A stretch of 33,046 nt of DNA, taken from NCBI RefSeq assembly GCF_003334815.1, contig NZ_QOWO01000041.1; one strand, 5' to 3'. This DNA comes from Escherichia coli. GTDB lineage: Bacteria > Pseudomonadota > Gammaproteobacteria > Enterobacterales > Enterobacteriaceae. Below the pieces are notes generated by a model that ran no database searches, was not told the DNA's origin, and saw only the letters and a list, made by a program, of their open reading frames with translations. Both the position numbers and the translations under genes were made by a program. Positions within the stretch are counted from its first letter, which is position 1, and every line of letters starts with the position of its first letter. Below, one piece after another: positions 8,591 through 14,950 of the stretch.

Positions 8591-8795
<205 letters not shown>

Positions 8796-8807: not shown

Positions 8808-11069
8808 TTACATCTGACGGTTTTTATTGAAGTTAATCAAACTACCCGCCTTGATAATCTCGCGCTCTTCAGCAGTCAGACTTTCCATATAGAGCGTAAT
8901 TTCCGTTACCGGCGCATCTTCATGGATCACATAACCTTTAAACGTCGTACCCGGATTATCCAGCGCCGCTTTAATGCCAGGGATGTAAATGTAATCCCCC
9001 ACTTCAAAGGTTGGTACTTCCGCCATTTGCAGCGGTAACATCCCCCAGTTGATGACGTTAGAACGATAGCGTTTAGTCGCGTACTCCTCGGCAATATTCG
9101 CCAGACCGCCAATCACACGCTGGCAGCTCGCCGCCTGTTCACGCGCAGAACCATCGCCTGGTTTCACCGCATAGACCATGCTGCCAATTTCAGTTTGCAG
9201 CGGATCAATATGCTCCTGACCAGCAATCTGCTTAATGCGCGCAAACACCTCTGTCAGCTCGCTGACATTCCCCGCCAGACGCTGATTTTCCAGCTCAGCA
9301 GTCGCTTTACTTCTGCTAACATAACCGGGATCGCGGCGAGACAGGGTAAACTCCGCCAGACCAATCGGATTTGAACGATAAGAAGAGGTTTCACCGGAAG
9401 GAATCAGTTCGTCGGTGGTGGTCACTTCGTCGAGGATCTTCGAGCACACTTTCAGGACGATATTGTCAGTCAGCGCACCCAATTCCGGCCAGTCTTTAAT
9501 GTTCGGCCCGTAAATCAGCGGTTGCTGAGTTGCCCCTTTCACAAAGCCCTGATAAACACGGTTTTTATACGGCGTTACATCGAAGGCGTACTCCGGCACG
9601 TTGTCCCAGCAATCAAGTTCGCTGGCAGAGGTTAAATAGCCACCGTTTGCCGCAGTCGCAGCGATAGAACGAGCGTCCATCAACGCCACCGCTGACATCT
9701 GCCCATTAGCTGGCTTAGAGCCTTCGCGGTTCGGGAAGTTACGCGTGGTGTGGCGAATACTCAAACCGTTGTTGATTGGCGTATCGCCCGCGCCAAAGCA
9801 TGGGCCGCAGAACGCGGTTCTGATGATTGCGCCTGCGCCAATCAAATCTGCTACCACACCTTTTTTGGCGAGATCCATAAACACCGGCTGTGATGACGGG
9901 TAAACTGCCAGCGAGAAGGTGTCATTGCCACAGGATTGACCGCGCAGTGCATTCGCCGCCGCGATGACGTTTTCGTAGTTACCGCCAGAACAGCCCGCGA
10001 TAATCCCCTGCTGCACTTTCAGGCGACCATTTTCCACTTTATCCAGCAGCGAGAGTTTGGCTTTACCGTGCGCCACGCGTTCGGACTCAATTTCAATCTC
10101 ACGCAGAATGTCGGTCAGGTTCTGGTTCAGTGTGTCGATTTCATACACGTTGCTCGGGTGGAACGGCAGCGCAATCATTGGTTTGATGGCGCTTAAATCA
10201 ACGCTGATGCAGCCATCGTAGTACGCCATCGGTTGAGGGTTAAGCTGGCAGTAATCCTGGCCGCGACCGTGCAGCGCCAGCCAGTTATGGACTTCTTCAT
10301 CGGTTTGCCAGACAGAACTTAAACAGGTCGTTTCAGTGGTCATCACGTCAACGCTGTTACGGAAATCGGTAGAGAGCGCGCTAACGCCCGGTCCAACGAA
10401 CTCCATGACTTTGTTTTTGACGTAACCGTTTTTGAACACCGCGCCAATGATAGCCAGCGCCACATCCTGTGGCCCCACATACGGCGCAGGTTTTCCGGTC
10501 AGATGCACCGCAACCACGCCCGGATAGTCGATATCCCAGGTGTCATTAAGCAGCTGTTTTACCAACTCACCGCCGCCCTCACCGACTGCCATTGTCCCTA
10601 ATGCACCGTAACGGGTGTGGCTGTCTGACCCGAGGATCATTTTGCCGCCGCCTGCCATCATCTCACGCATATATTGATGGATGACCGCAATATGCGGAGG
10701 CACAAAAATACCGCCATAACGCTGGGCCGCCGATAAACCAAAAACATGGTCATCACCGTTAATAGTGCCGCCGACGGCGCAGAGTGAGTTATGGCAGTTG
10801 GTCAGCACATACGGCAGCGGGAAACGTTCCATACCGGACGCTTTAGCGGTCTGTACAATACCAACAAAGGTAATATCGTGAGAGGCTAATGAATCAAACT
10901 TAATTTTAAGTTTATCCATATTTCCGGACGTATTATGCGAAGAGAGAATAGACCAGGCAATAGTGCCTTTTTTGGCTTCTTCTTTTTTAATTTCGCCGGT
11001 GAAATGTTCTTCGGCAATTATTTCGTTATTACTGGCGAGAAACACGCCTTTTTCAGATAACTTGATCAT
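8808..11069 (-). CDS. ybhJ: YbhJ, aconitase-family putative hydratase (753 aa)
   Basis: ORF 8808-11093 trimmed from GTG to ATG at 11069 ([10 protein letters not shown]...), which has a GGAG RBS 6 nt upstream. Large aconitase-like protein; gene order matches the ybhDHIJ cluster. Confidence 0.85.
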
Positions 11070-11251
11070 CAAATGCTCCAGATATCTGCGCACCGTGAAG
11101 TGCGCAGAAAGATAATAAATGGATATACTCTAAATAATTCGAGTTGCAGGAAGGCGACAAGCGAGTGAATCCCCAGGAGCTTACATAAGTAAGTGACTGG
11201 GGTGAGCGAACGCAGACGCAGCACATGCAACTTGAAGTATGACGAGAATAT

Positions 11252-12685
11252 TTACAGCATGTTCCAGCCGATCAGCATATTCCACCACCACACGCCGAGG
11301 GTGATATGCACCAGGAAGGTTAATATCGTCAGTACCGCACCGACCAACCACCAGGATTTAATATCGTTATAACCCACGCCAAAGATGACCGGACCTGCCG
11401 CGCCGCCATAGTGAGTAACCATGCCGCCATAGGAGTTGGAGAACAACAGTGCCAGCGCGGTTAACATTAACGGTGCGCCGGAGACGTTCGCCAGCATGGC
11501 AAATACCGGTAACATAGCAACGATATAGGCACTACCGGAAGCGAAGAAATAACGCACGATAATGCTGAGGAAAATAATAACGAAGAAAGCAACGTTACCG
11601 TGACCATCAAATGCCAGGTTATTTTTAAAGACTTCAGCTAACCATTCGAAGAATTTAACTTTCGATAATAAGGAGCTTAAGCCGATAATACCGCCGTACC
11701 AGATTAAGGTATTCCAGCCGCCTTTATTTTTAACCACGTCTTCCCAGGTAACGATACCCAGCAGCAGCATGGTTGCCATAACAACGATTGCCACGGTGGA
11801 TTCATCAACCCCCAGAGACTTACTGAAAATCCAGCCCAGCAGCGCCAGCACAAAGACACCGAGCAGCATTTTTTCGCGGATTTTCATCGGTCCTAGTTCG
11901 GCAAGGCCCGCTTTAGCGATGGTTTTGTTATCCACCTTCTTAATTTCTGGTGGATACATGGTGTAAATCACCAGCGGGGTGACCAGCAGCATAATGATGC
12001 CCGGCAATCCGGCTGCCAGCGCCCATCCACCCCAGCTAATTTGCAGGTGCAGAATGTCGTTGATCATTTTCAGCGCCAGAATGTTCCCCGCCATTGCGGT
12101 AAAGAACATATAGCTGGTGGTTTTGGTGACCATGTAAATGGACATCATCAGGTAATGTCCGACACGACGCGGACTTTTTTCCGGTTCGGACCCCAAAGCC
12201 ACCGCCACGCTGTTGATGATCGGTAACACAATGCCGCCCGCACGCGCGGTGTTAGACGGTGTTGCCGGAGCCAGTACCAGATCGAGGAATACCGTAACGT
12301 AACCCAGACCCAGCGTGGTGTTACCGATTTTACCAATCAGCAGATAGGCAATACGTTTACCTAAACCGGTGGTCACAAATGCGGCGCTTAAGGTAAACGC
12401 CGAGAACACCAGCCAGGTGGTACCTGAAGAGTAACCGCTTAATACGGCGGTGGTTTTAAACGCACCGTCGGATAAGTTACCGACCACCACCATTGAGGCA
12501 GCAACGGCAATTAACAGTACGACAGGTTCCGGGAAAGGCTTGATAACCAGCCCCACAATGGCCGCCAGGTAAATACCAAAAAGCACCCACGCCAGTTCGC
12601 TTAATCCTGCCGGAGCTGGCATAAAACCAATAATACATGGGATCGCTAATATCAGAATTAGCTTCCATAACGATTTCTTATTCAT
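11252..12685 (-). CDS. ybhI: YbhI, DASS-family anion (di/tricarboxylate-type) transporter (477 aa)
   Basis: Highly hydrophobic multi-pass membrane protein; length and position match ybhI. Confidence 0.9.
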   Translation of the reverse strand: MNKKSLWKLILILAIPCIIGFMPAPAGLSELAWVLFGIYLAAIVGLVIKPFPEPVVLLIAVAASMVVVGNLSDGAFKTTAVLSGYSSGTTWLVFSAFTLSAAFVTTGLGKRIAYLLIGKIGNTTLGLGYVTVFLDLVLAPATPSNTARAGGIVLPIINSVAVALGSEPEKSPRRVGHYLMMSIYMVTKTTSYMFFTAMAGNILALKMINDILHLQISWGGWALAAGLPGIIMLLVTPLVIYTMYPPEIKKVDNKTIAKAGLAELGPMKIREKMLLGVFVLALLGWIFSKSLGVDESTVAIVVMATMLLLGIVTWEDVVKNKGGWNTLIWYGGIIGLSSLLSKVKFFEWLAEVFKNNLAFDGHGNVAFFVIIFLSIIVRYFFASGSAYIVAMLPVFAMLANVSGAPLMLTALALLFSNSYGGMVTHYGGAAGPVIFGVGYNDIKSWWLVGAVLTILTFLVHITLGVWWWNMLIGWNML

Positions 12686-12760
12686 TTAAAATCCTGTTCT
12701 TTCTGTATGACTCATACAGAAGTCCTTTATTGATTGTCCTTATCCTGACAACGAATTTTT

Positions 12761-13813
12761 TCAGGGAAGATAAACTTCACCGGAAAATATTTTTCTGGTC
12801 GTCCGAATAACAGATGCGCGTAACGTCGTGGCATCCTGACCTTCATTACTTAAATGAACGTCGAGCGCACCACTGGGGTGTTCAATATTGATATTGCCGT
12901 ATCCTACAGAAGGGACGATTTGTCGGGTGACGGTGCCTTCCAATGCACAACTACTGGAAATAGCAATAGCACCGGTTATCGCCAGCGCGCGATGGCAAGA
13001 ATGCGGCATAAAATAACGCACATTAATTGCCCCGCCTTTCTGCGCTGGAGAAATAAGCACAGGTTTAGGGATAACCATATTACTGACATCACCTAAGCCC
13101 ATTGCTTTACCCGCTTGTAGACGGATAGATTCAATGCGGGCTAATAATGCTTTGTCGGCATCCAGTTCCGCCGGTAATTCATAACCTGTTTTTCCCAGAT
13201 ATTCAGCCGGAATAATGACGACTGGCATCGCCATATCGATACAGGTCACCGGGACATCGTCAAAATAATCAATCTGATTATCAGTCGGGAAAACTTTTCC
13301 GGTTTTGGTTCCAGCGGCATTCAGGAAAGTGAGCGCAACCGGTGCGGCAGTACCCGGTACGCCGTCAATTCTGGCGCTACCCTCGTACTCGACAACACCA
13401 TTTGGCGTTTGCACATCAGCTTCGATGAACGTACCCGTATTGACGTTGCGGATACGTACGCGAGTAACTGGCGAAGTCGCTGCAATCAAACCATTTTCAA
13501 TGGCGAATGCCCCAACACCAGACAGCATATTGCCGCAGTTAGGCGTGGTATCGACACGTTGCTCATGAACGATTACCTGCGCAAACAGATAATCGACATC
13601 AGCACGCGGATCGCTGGAACGGCTAATAATGGCGACTTTACTGGTCAGTGGATTACCGCCGCCAATACCGTCAATTTCCAGATCGTTACCGGAACCCATA
13701 ATTGCCATCAATATTTTATCGCGCTGCGTTTGATCTTCGGGTAAATGTTCCGCTAACAGGAACGCGCCCCTCGAGGTTCCACCTCGCATCATCACGCAGG
13801 GTATTTTTTTCAT
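12761..13813 (-). CDS. ybhH: YbhH, PrpF-family isomerase (350 aa)
   Basis: MKKIPCVMMRGGTSRGAFLL... has the PrpF/methylaconitate-isomerase-like N-terminus. Divergent from the LysR regulator ybhD. Confidence 0.9.
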   Translation of the reverse strand: MKKIPCVMMRGGTSRGAFLLAEHLPEDQTQRDKILMAIMGSGNDLEIDGIGGGNPLTSKVAIISRSSDPRADVDYLFAQVIVHEQRVDTTPNCGNMLSGVGAFAIENGLIAATSPVTRVRIRNVNTGTFIEADVQTPNGVVEYEGSARIDGVPGTAAPVALTFLNAAGTKTGKVFPTDNQIDYFDDVPVTCIDMAMPVVIIPAEYLGKTGYELPAELDADKALLARIESIRLQAGKAMGLGDVSNMVIPKPVLISPAQKGGAINVRYFMPHSCHRALAITGAIAISSSCALEGTVTRQIVPSVGYGNINIEHPSGALDVHLSNEGQDATTLRASVIRTTRKIFSGEVYLP

Positions 13814-13897
13814 AATAATGCCCTCAATTTAAAAACATAACTTATTGCGATATGGTTACATTAAGGGCAAAGCATCTCTAATGACTTTAGCTCAACG

Positions 13898-13920
13898 ATT
13901 AATAACATTTTTTCATTAAT
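13898..13920. promoter_or_regulatory. Candidate LysR-type (T-N11-A) operator in the ybhH-ybhD divergent intergenic region
   Basis: ATTAAT-N11-ATTAAT dyad at 13898-13920, between divergent ybhH and the LysR-family gene ybhD. Confidence 0.3.
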
Positions 13921-13996
13921 TTAAGTTGGCTAAATGCAGTTAAAATTTTTAACGGCCAGCCACCCAAAATCGTCGCTTCCATTTTCCGGAGTAATA

Positions 13997-14950
13997 ATGA
14001 AGCATGAATTATCAAGTATGAAGGCATTTGTCATACTGGCAGAGTCCAGTTCGTTTAACAATGCCGCTAAATTACTCAATATTACGCAACCTGCATTAAC
14101 GCGAAGAATAAAAAAGATGGAGGAAGATTTACATATTCAACTATTTGAGCGTACAACTCGCAAGGTTACGTTAACAAAAGCAGGAAAAAGGTTGCTCCCG
14201 GAGGCGCGGGAATTAATAAAGAAATTCGATGAAACGCTTTTTAATATTCGTGATATGAATGCTTATCATCGTGGTATGGTGACGTTAGCGTGTATTCCGA
14301 CCGCAGTATTTTATTTTTTACCGCTGGCAATCGGTAAATTTAATGAGCTGTATCCCAATATTAAAGTGCGGATTCTGGAACAAGGCACGAATAATTGCAT
14401 GGAATCGGTGCTGTGTAACGAATCAGACTTTGGCATAAACATGAACAACGTCACAAATTCATCCATTGATTTTACCCCACTGGTCAACGAGCCGTTCGTG
14501 CTGGCCTGTCGGCGTGACCATCCATTGGCCAAAAAGCAGCTTGTAGAATGGCAGGAGTTAGTGGGTTACAAAATGATTGGCGTACGCTCCTCCAGCGGCA
14601 ACCGACTGTTGATAGAACAACAGCTGGCCGACAAGCCCTGGAAGCTGGACTGGTTTTACGAAGTGCGTCATCTTTCGACGTCATTAGGACTGGTGGAGGC
14701 GGGACTGGGGATTTCGGCGCTTCCTGGCCTGGCAATGCCTCATGCGCCCTATTCTTCGATTATTGGTATCCCATTGGTGGAACCCGTTATACGTCGAACA
14801 TTGGGAATAATTCGCCGTAAAGATGCCGTACTTTCTCCAGCAGCAGAACGCTTTTTTGCCTTGCTGATTAATTTATGGACTGACGATAAAGACAATTTGT
14901 GGACCAATATCGTCGAACGCCAGAGACACGCGTTACAGGAGATAGGTTAA
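13997..14950 (+). CDS. ybhD: YbhD, LysR-family transcriptional regulator (317 aa)
   Basis: ORF 13934-14950 trimmed to ATG 13997 (MKHELSSMKAFVILAESSSFNNAAKLLNITQPALTRRIKKMEEDL..., N-terminal HTH) with GGAG RBS. Confidence 0.85.
   Translation: MKHELSSMKAFVILAESSSFNNAAKLLNITQPALTRRIKKMEEDLHIQLFERTTRKVTLTKAGKRLLPEARELIKKFDETLFNIRDMNAYHRGMVTLACIPTAVFYFLPLAIGKFNELYPNIKVRILEQGTNNCMESVLCNESDFGINMNNVTNSSIDFTPLVNEPFVLACRRDHPLAKKQLVEWQELVGYKMIGVRSSSGNRLLIEQQLADKPWKLDWFYEVRHLSTSLGLVEAGLGISALPGLAMPHAPYSSIIGIPLVEPVIRRTLGIIRRKDAVLSPAAERFFALLINLWTDDKDNLWTNIVERQRHALQEIG

Follow-up and report, generated by a model that had tools for sequence, protein, structure and literature searches.

The four genes ybhD, ybhH, ybhI and ybhJ occupy positions 8808–14950 of a 33,046-nucleotide stretch of Escherichia coli DNA (contig NZ_QOWO01000041.1 of RefSeq assembly GCF_003334815.1; the whole stretch is referred to below as the window), and the question raised by this locus is which compound the cluster handles, as four core genes of the best-studied bacterium are still without an assigned function. 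A first-pass annotation of the window had described a LysR-type regulator gene divergent from an operon for a PrpF-family isomerase, a DASS-family anion transporter and an aconitase-family protein, and had proposed, by analogy with the AcnD/PrpF pair of the methylcitrate pathway, that an aconitate-like tricarboxylate is taken up and converted. The analysis presented here leads to a more specific reading, to which we give about an even chance: the cluster would serve for the uptake of trans-aconitate or a close analogue, its isomerization to cis-aconitate and the hydration of the latter to citrate or isocitrate, under the control of YbhD. The features of the cluster are as follows (aa, amino acids; ERIC, enterobacterial repetitive intergenic consensus; IRU, intergenic repeat unit).

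8808–11069, minus strand: ybhJ, 753 aa, aconitase-superfamily hydratase of the [4Fe-4S] type, PRK11413/NF008503 clade; ATG at 11069 with GGAG upstream
11094–11251, no strand: spacer between ybhI and ybhJ, with an ERIC/IRU repeat (core at 11165–11208)
11252–12685, minus strand: ybhI, 477 aa, DASS-family anion transporter of the exchanger type
12761–13813, minus strand: ybhH, 350 aa, allylic isomerase of the PrpF fold
13814–13996, no strand: divergent control region of ybhH and ybhD, with a candidate LysR box, ATTAAT-N11-ATTAAT, at 13898–13920
13997–14950, plus strand: ybhD, 317 aa, LysR-type regulator; start ATG at 13997

The list of open reading frames (ORFs; 8808–11093, 11252–12685 and 12761–13813 on the minus strand, 13934–14950 on the plus strand) has the same boundaries as the first-pass annotation and bears out the divergent layout that it described. 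RefSeq names the four genes ybhJ, ybhI, ybhH and ybhD, and the annotated starts of ybhJ and ybhD lie slightly internal to the longest ORFs. The 6143-base stretch that carries the cluster matches every complete E. coli genome compared (5426/5426), at least 80% of it being found in one piece in 5316 of them, while about 110 are without an uninterrupted copy; ybhD, ybhH, ybhI and ybhJ are core genes in E. coli. The ratio of nonsynonymous to synonymous substitution rates (dN/dS), calculated against E. albertii, amounts to 0.02–0.04 for all four genes (dS 0.38–0.59), indicating that these are functioning genes under strong purifying selection, not relics or chance ORFs. Insertion sequences (IS1, IS5, IS903B and ISVsa5) have entered the cluster in several E. 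coli strains, and in strain IAL7252 about 1.1 kb of additional unannotated DNA separates ybhH from ybhD.

Klebsiella and Edwardsiella carry the four-gene cluster at other places in the chromosome, which suggests that ybhD/ybhHIJ travels as a unit. In K. aerogenes (locus L003, 2865–18286) it lies between ispH/rihC and the citAB-oadGAB-citS genes of citrate fermentation, and a second DASS-type gene is placed between ybhI and ybhJ.

The assignment of YbhJ to the aconitase superfamily was confirmed by an NCBIfam scan, in which the aconitase-superfamily model NF008503 ("hydratase") gave the protein 1541 bits, and by the Pfam domains precomputed for its homologues (PF00330 and PF00694). YbhJ falls below the cut-offs of the aconitase equivalog models, its score being 343 bits for PRK07229 (612 required), 96 at most for the AcnA models and 51 for AcnB. 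In the alignment with pig mitochondrial aconitase, Cys360, Cys421 and Cys424 of YbhJ correspond to the cluster ligands Cys358, Cys421 and Cys424, and the equivalents of His101, His147, Asp165, His167, Glu262, Arg447, Arg452, Ser642 and Arg644 are kept; all of these residues are invariant in the YbhJ family. The same applies to the equivalent of Arg580, the residue of aconitase that binds the third carboxylate. Since the segment from Asp568 to Arg580 falls outside both the single-sequence and the profile alignments to solved aconitases, it was mapped through the PRK07229 aconitases, whose TDD...MRSN motif aligns with the corresponding YbhJ motif, and through the 12-residue Asp568/Arg580 spacing, which the YbhJ motif preserves. 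The numbering of the pig sequence around residues 568–580 is self-consistent with Ser642 in the alignments. Five positions of the substrate shell are changed in the YbhJ family (Asp100 to Cys, Asn258 to Val, Asn446 to Thr, Ser643 to Ala and Asn170 to Tyr), whereas the PRK07229 aconitases retain the aconitase residues at all five. The YbhJ family is best described as a clade of its own, whose members probably are catalysts and probably bind tricarboxylates, but differ from the aconitases in specificity or other properties.

This description differs from the published one, in which YbhJ was called a catalytically inactive aconitase paralogue and the ybhJ mutant was found to be sensitive to H2O2 and low in NADPH (PMC4054840). 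On that basis YbhJ could be a non-catalytic paralogue with a sensing or regulatory role, for instance in oxidative stress, its co-location with ybhHI being incidental, and a related clade, represented by P0148 and P0156, has truly lost the cluster ligands. We regard this explanation as extremely unlikely, as E. coli YbhJ and its close family retain the three Cys ligands and the catalytic residues, dN/dS of ybhJ is as low as 0.03, homologues of YbhJ are encoded inside metabolic operons (see below), and the four-gene cluster has been retained after relocation in other genera. Blank et al. reportedly observed in 2002 that inactivation of ybhJ left the residual aconitase activity of an acnAB mutant unchanged; this observation would be uninformative if YbhD keeps the operon switched off, and repression by YbhD could explain it. 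The ybhJ mRNA was 18-fold more abundant in E. coli fed Chlamydomonas than in cells grown in LB (lysogeny broth) (PMC10972114).

The P0148/P0156 clade is distant (38–39% identity; L008, 8001–10966, and L009, 1175–4287) and, having lost the cluster Cys and the catalytic residues, was excluded from the YbhJ comparison as a dead clade. The stop codon of its gene overlaps the start of a Macro-domain gene, and the protein is perhaps a pseudo-enzyme that plays another role.

When one genome per species was scanned, at least 599 relatives of YbhJ were identified. The best 80 of these come mostly from gut anaerobes, including Lachnospiraceae (Enterocloster, Hungatella, Blautia, Butyrivibrio), Collinsella, Ellagibacter, Megasphaera, Acidaminococcus and Erysipelotrichaceae. 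The full-length identity between E. coli YbhJ and its homologues from gut Firmicutes and Actinobacteria reaches 66–71%, a remarkably high value for a cross-phylum comparison, and in a neighbour-joining tree constructed without bootstrap values the enteric YbhJ proteins form one group beside those of the anaerobes, far from the PRK07229 aconitases. A library of representatives at 50% identity contains just a handful of full-length YbhJ clusters, so the family is a compact one.

The gene neighbourhoods of these homologues were analyzed by calling ORFs in the fetched loci, clustering them and annotating the recurrent neighbours; contexts were counted over 41 loci, the enteric and Collinsella-type loci being set apart. 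A citrate-related gene is located within four genes of the YbhJ homologue in 17/41 loci, the neighbours comprising citrate synthase PRK14032 (10), a dehydrogenase of the isocitrate dehydrogenase (IDH) family (11), citrate lyase subunits (3) and a CitMHS transporter. In locus L019 a LysR gene is divergent from a ybhJ-like gene followed by citD, citE, citF, citG and citC, while L069 contains, all on the same strand, an IDH-like gene, citD, citE, citF and a ybhJ-like gene. A CitMHS-type carrier gene stands immediately upstream of the ybhJ homologue of Acidaminococcus fermentans (66% identical to E. coli YbhJ), and in the metagenomic locus L007 a LysR gene is divergent from IDH-like, PrpF-like and YbhJ-like genes. 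These contexts place the chemistry of the YbhJ family on the citrate/aconitate/isocitrate axis. The idea of an aconitate-like tricarboxylate, put forward in the first-pass annotation, gains strength from the citrate-centred operons and from the retained equivalents of Arg447, Arg452, Arg580 and Arg644.

In some anaerobe loci (L005, 4841–10241; L007, 199–10202; L020) two YbhJ-family paralogues, or a YbhJ-family gene and a standard PRK07229 aconitase gene, lie within a few kb of each other, which suggests that the two enzyme types are non-redundant. In Collinsella (e.g. L039, 3430–16965) the YbhJ homologue is always located between the dnaK-dnaJ-hspR heat-shock operon and clpB, with no metabolic neighbours, and adjoins small proteins that match no other gene family in the compared loci.

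The AcnD/PrpF analogy of the first-pass annotation stood as far as the pairing of enzyme families is concerned, in that a PrpF-fold isomerase is likewise combined with an aconitase-family dehydratase in the 2-methylcitrate cycle, and PrpF itself is reported to isomerize aconitates (PMC5690661). As the closest parallel it did not hold. Both proteins are far below the equivalog cut-offs, YbhJ scoring 63 bits on the AcnD model TIGR02333 (cut-off 1420) and YbhH 187 bits on the PrpF model TIGR02334 (cut-off 440.55), and YbhJ is closer to mitochondrial-type and PRK07229 aconitases. At the loci examined, moreover, the citrate synthases encoded beside YbhJ homologues pass the citrate-synthase subfamily model and fail the 2-methylcitrate-synthase models, and no methylisocitrate lyase gene is adjacent. 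E. coli already has prpBCDE with PrpD. A module of the AcnD/PrpF type for 2-methylcitrate or 2-methylaconitate is consequently very unlikely.

A further alternative is that the cluster acts on branched C5/C6 dicarboxylates (itaconate, citraconate, mesaconate or methylitaconate). It would then parallel the 3-methylitaconate isomerase (Mii) and dimethylmaleate hydratase of nicotinate fermentation, with YbhH shifting the double bond and YbhJ hydrating the maleate-type product. Such a role would agree with the unusual active-site shell of YbhJ, unlike that of true aconitases, with the name "2,3-dimethylmalate dehydratase large subunit" carried in some databases by the YbhJ homologues P0035 and P0118, with the rank of Mii (PDB 3G7K; E = 2e-67) as the second-closest solved relative of YbhH, after LigU, and with the dicarboxylate transporters that are the closest solved relatives of YbhI. 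It is nonetheless unlikely, given that the Arg580 equivalent, which would bind a third carboxylate, is invariant in the YbhJ family, that YbhJ homologues are accompanied by genes for citrate synthase, IDH-like proteins and citrate lyase, not by those for C5-dicarboxylate enzymes, and that the cluster is without a citramalate CoA-transferase or lyase gene.

YbhH is identical to the protein of PDB entry 6OTV ("putative isomerase YbhH"), which has the PrpF fold, and its homologues carry PF04303; it thus belongs to the PrpF superfamily, although the score on TIGR02334 given above does not place it among the 2-methylaconitate isomerases. Its Lys59 and Cys93 align with the catalytic Lys66 and Cys100 of LigU, the positions mutated in chains 6P3H and 6P3K. 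Among solved proteins of known function LigU is the closest relative (E = 3e-93), and YbhH passes the NF033377 model ("OMA_tautomer") with 515 bits against a cut-off of 440, which is the reason why RefSeq names it "4-oxalomesaconate tautomerase".

Taken at face value, this name would make YbhH a genuine 4-oxalomesaconate isomerase and the cluster a route for scavenging the ring-cleavage product of gallate or protocatechuate, in which YbhJ would replace the LigJ/GalB hydratase. 4-Oxalomesaconate is itself an aconitate-like tricarboxylate, and the fold and the Lys/Cys pair are common to YbhH and the LigU/GalD (4E)-oxalomesaconate delta-isomerases. However, true LigU/GalD homologues (Azospirillum, Ralstonia) are only 44–49% identical to YbhH and always adjoin genes for the LigJ hydratase (an amidohydrolase), the LigK aldolase and a ring-cleavage dioxygenase. 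None of these neighbours (LigJ/GalB, LigK/GalC, dioxygenase) was found beside ybhH at the loci in E. coli, Klebsiella, Edwardsiella and Rhizobium. YbhH also forms a clade, separate from the LigU/GalD enzymes, with rhizobial homologues whose genes are partnered only by LysR and ABC transporter genes. We therefore give this explanation very little credence, and the RefSeq name is probably an over-annotation.

The closest non-enteric relatives of YbhH (57–58% identity) are encoded on Rhizobium plasmids, in a module where a LysR gene is divergent from the isomerase gene and genes of an SsuA/TauT-type ABC transporter, with no hydratase gene; the LysR protein and YbhD share 50% identity along the full length. 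The regulator-isomerase pair is thus common to plant-associated and gut bacteria, while the transporter was swapped and the hydratase is confined to the enteric version. As the rhizobial module consists of an isomerase and a transporter alone, the isomerase product should already be a central metabolite, for which cis-aconitate is the obvious candidate.

This design is also that of the TarR/TarA/TarB system of Bacillus velezensis (PMC11495376), in which a LysR gene is likewise divergent from an operon with a gene for a PrpF-superfamily isomerase in first position, followed by an importer gene. The rhizobial YbhD-YbhH modules have exactly this three-part structure. The transporter, however, belongs to the major facilitator superfamily in Tar, whereas Rhizobium has an ABC and E. 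coli a DASS transporter; in E. coli an aconitase-type hydratase is encoded in addition, and YbhD behaves as a repressor in the sole available data while TarR is an activator. The TbrA/TbrB operon of Bacillus thuringiensis, responsible for trans-aconitate production, also combines a PrpF-fold isomerase with a dedicated transporter, but works in the opposite direction (export) and has no adjacent regulator or hydratase gene. YbhH is 41% identical to a PrpF protein encoded on a B. thuringiensis plasmid (L090) beside a DMT transporter gene; this protein may be TbrA itself, judging from its tbrA/tbrB-like gene arrangement. The two proven aconitate isomerases, TarA and TbrA, are only 33% identical to each other (PMC11495376), and YbhH in this sense resembles known aconitate isomerases.

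A parallel for the hydratase step may be found in Acidaminococcus fermentans, where trans-aconitate fermentation runs via citrate and citrate lyase (Hartel and Buckel 1996, as cited in PMC3035267). In this organism the gene for a citrate-type carrier lies beside the YbhJ-family gene mentioned above; unlike in E. coli, no PrpF gene is adjacent on the fragment, and the organism has several aconitase-domain genes. Tar and the Acidaminococcus pathway from trans-aconitate to citrate are closer analogues of the E. coli cluster than AcnD/PrpF. The E. coli cluster may be viewed as Tar-like, differing in its transporter and in the addition of an enzyme resembling aconitase, and is built of genes that are themselves long-known y-genes. 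A dedicated hydratase would be of use on two counts: at equilibrium the aconitate isomerase reaction lies on the trans side, and ordinary aconitase is inhibited by trans-aconitate (PMC11495376).

YbhI scored 554 bits on the DASS model TIGR00785 (transport classification 2.A.47; cut-off 198.6) and is thus a member of this family, as the first-pass annotation had it. Its closest solved relatives, the chloroplast 2-oxoglutarate/malate translocators DiT1 and DiT2.1 and the protein LaINDY, are all exchangers, which suggests that YbhI also acts by antiport, as do CitT and TtdT. The latter two are E. coli DASS antiporters (citrate/succinate and tartrate/succinate, respectively), each encoded beside enzymes that use its substrate. 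YbhI is listed with them in the same family (PMC5318444), and it is by this membership that it is likened to them and that a common exchange mechanism is presumed. In Edwardsiella tarda (L002, 6404–8001) no gene is annotated at the ybhI position, and our own ORF call gave two pieces of 230 and 260 aa, while ybhI of E. hoshinae is intact (477 aa); in the E. tarda strain the gene may have decayed to a pseudogene.

All NCBIfam matches of YbhD are LysR-family models, and its homologues carry PF00126 and PF03466, in line with the predicted LysR family membership. Control of the operon by this regulator, also postulated earlier, is documented in a systems study of 2022: ybhH is strongly up-regulated upon deletion of ybhD, and chromatin immunoprecipitation with exonuclease digestion (ChIP-exo) located a YbhD site at ybhH/ybhI (PMC9068703). 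YbhD is thus a repressor of ybhH under laboratory conditions. The divergent region (about 184 bp) contains the dyad ATTAAT-N11-ATTAAT at 13898–13920, with a T-N11-A core, and a block in this control region, TAAATTAAT..TTATTAATCG..GAGCTAAAGTCATTAG, is conserved in Edwardsiella. The dyad is a candidate YbhD site, an assignment that we infer from the sequence. A scan for promoters and terminators gave fewer promoter-like sites than shuffled sequence (5 versus 9.4) and no convincing operon terminator; these results were not used.

Deletion of ybhD affects growth on glycerol plus L-malate, and the sole functional label given to the gene is "L-malate utilization related" (PMC9068703). The authors' proposal, i.e. 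that the cluster handles C4-dicarboxylates (L-malate), would make YbhI its core component and YbhH and YbhJ accessory, and agrees with the similarity of YbhI to 2-oxoglutarate/malate translocators. We find it quite improbable: malate requires neither an allylic isomerase nor an aconitase-type hydratase, and the rhizobial YbhD-YbhH orthologues use an unrelated ABC transporter. The phenotype is equally well explained by malate being the counter-substrate of a derepressed exchanger, and antiport by YbhI provides a simple account of it in the ybhD mutant.

The gene organization, the family memberships, the conservation of catalytic residues, the published repression by YbhD and the citrate-centred context of YbhJ homologues are established; the substrate, the reaction directions, the exchange partner and the inducer are what we infer. 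According to the trans-aconitate reading, ybhD/ybhHIJ would be a catabolic module that YbhD normally keeps silent and that serves for an unsaturated tricarboxylate of external origin, most likely trans-aconitate. The acid would be imported by YbhI, an antiporter-type DASS protein, the likely counter-substrate being a C4-dicarboxylate (for example, succinate or malate). YbhH, working without a cofactor through its Lys59/Cys93 acid-base pair, would shift the double bond to give cis-aconitate, which YbhJ, an oxygen-labile [4Fe-4S] hydratase of the aconitase type, would convert to citrate or isocitrate; this step would pull the unfavourable isomerase equilibrium and spare AcnA and AcnB, on which trans-aconitate acts as an inhibitor. 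The product would pass to citrate lyase (under anaerobic conditions) or to isocitrate dehydrogenase. YbhD would bind the ATTAAT-N11-ATTAAT box, and the inducer would cause release or activation of the operon.

Several serious points weigh against this reading. The altered substrate shell of YbhJ, the published claim of its inactivity together with the unchanged residual activity of the acnAB mutant, the NF033377 score of YbhH and the restriction of the only reported ybhD-mutant phenotype to L-malate have been described above, and most of the anaerobe YbhJ homologues have no adjacent PrpF gene. The literature searched contains no biochemical or growth link between the cluster and aconitate, and in particular no experiment on YbhH or YbhD concerning aconitate isomerase activity, induction by trans-aconitate or growth on it; it assigns no substrate, in agreement with the remark in the first-pass annotation that substrate and inducer were not established. 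E. coli engineered for trans-aconitate production accumulates 37 g/L of the acid (PMC12492653), and native consumption must therefore be at best weak under those conditions. Finally, the database-reported control of ybhH/ybhI by Nac (PMC9068703) is not explained by a purely carbon-catabolic role.

A broader proposal, tentative and in our estimation rather doubtful, is that the YbhJ family (PRK11413) constitutes an unrecognized third lineage of working aconitases and that ybhDHIJ of E. coli is a mosaic, forming a cryptic pathway by which dietary trans-aconitate is turned into citrate in the gut. The mosaic would have been assembled from a regulator-isomerase pair of the rhizobial type, a DASS exchanger and an aconitase of gut anaerobes obtained by horizontal transfer. 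If so, the YbhJ family may be the main citrate/isocitrate interconverter of many gut Firmicutes and Coriobacteriia, and the Cys in place of Asp100 may confer tolerance to trans-aconitate or even allow direct action on it.

Should the trans-aconitate reading prove true, E. coli would possess a third aconitase, expressed only under certain conditions, and could use an abundant plant acid that is also an aconitase inhibitor. A function would be found for the "hydratase" that gut Firmicutes, Actinobacteria and Enterobacteria share at 66–71% identity, to the benefit of metabolic models of the gut microbiota. YbhH would receive a corrected name in RefSeq, and YbhJ could no longer be called catalytically inactive.

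Minor sequence features were identified in and around the operon. The spacer between ybhI and ybhJ contains an exact match to the 44-nt core of the ERIC consensus (0 expected by chance). ERIC/IRU elements are usually found in transcribed regions, and the repeat could alter the relative stability of the ybhJ and ybhHI mRNAs. Inside the 75-nt spacer between ybhH and ybhI, a perfect hairpin with a 10-bp stem (TTTCTGTATGACTCATACAGAAG) is located at 12700–12722; it could be an element of mRNA processing or stability, or a partial terminator within the operon. Just 3′ of the ybhJ stop codon, at 8643–8713 on the minus strand, there is a match to the Rfam family naRNA4, a nucleoid-associated RNA derived from REP (repetitive extragenic palindromic) sequences, with a score of 60.7 bits against a gathering score of 59.5.

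Elsewhere in the window, directly upstream of ybhC, a phage integrase of 356 aa is encoded at 6086–7156 on the plus strand (PHROG integrase, E = 1.5e-82). A related strain has the same integrase-ybhC layout together with an excisionase gene and lambdoid genes, and it therefore seems that in the present strain a lambdoid prophage occupies the site adjoining ybhC.

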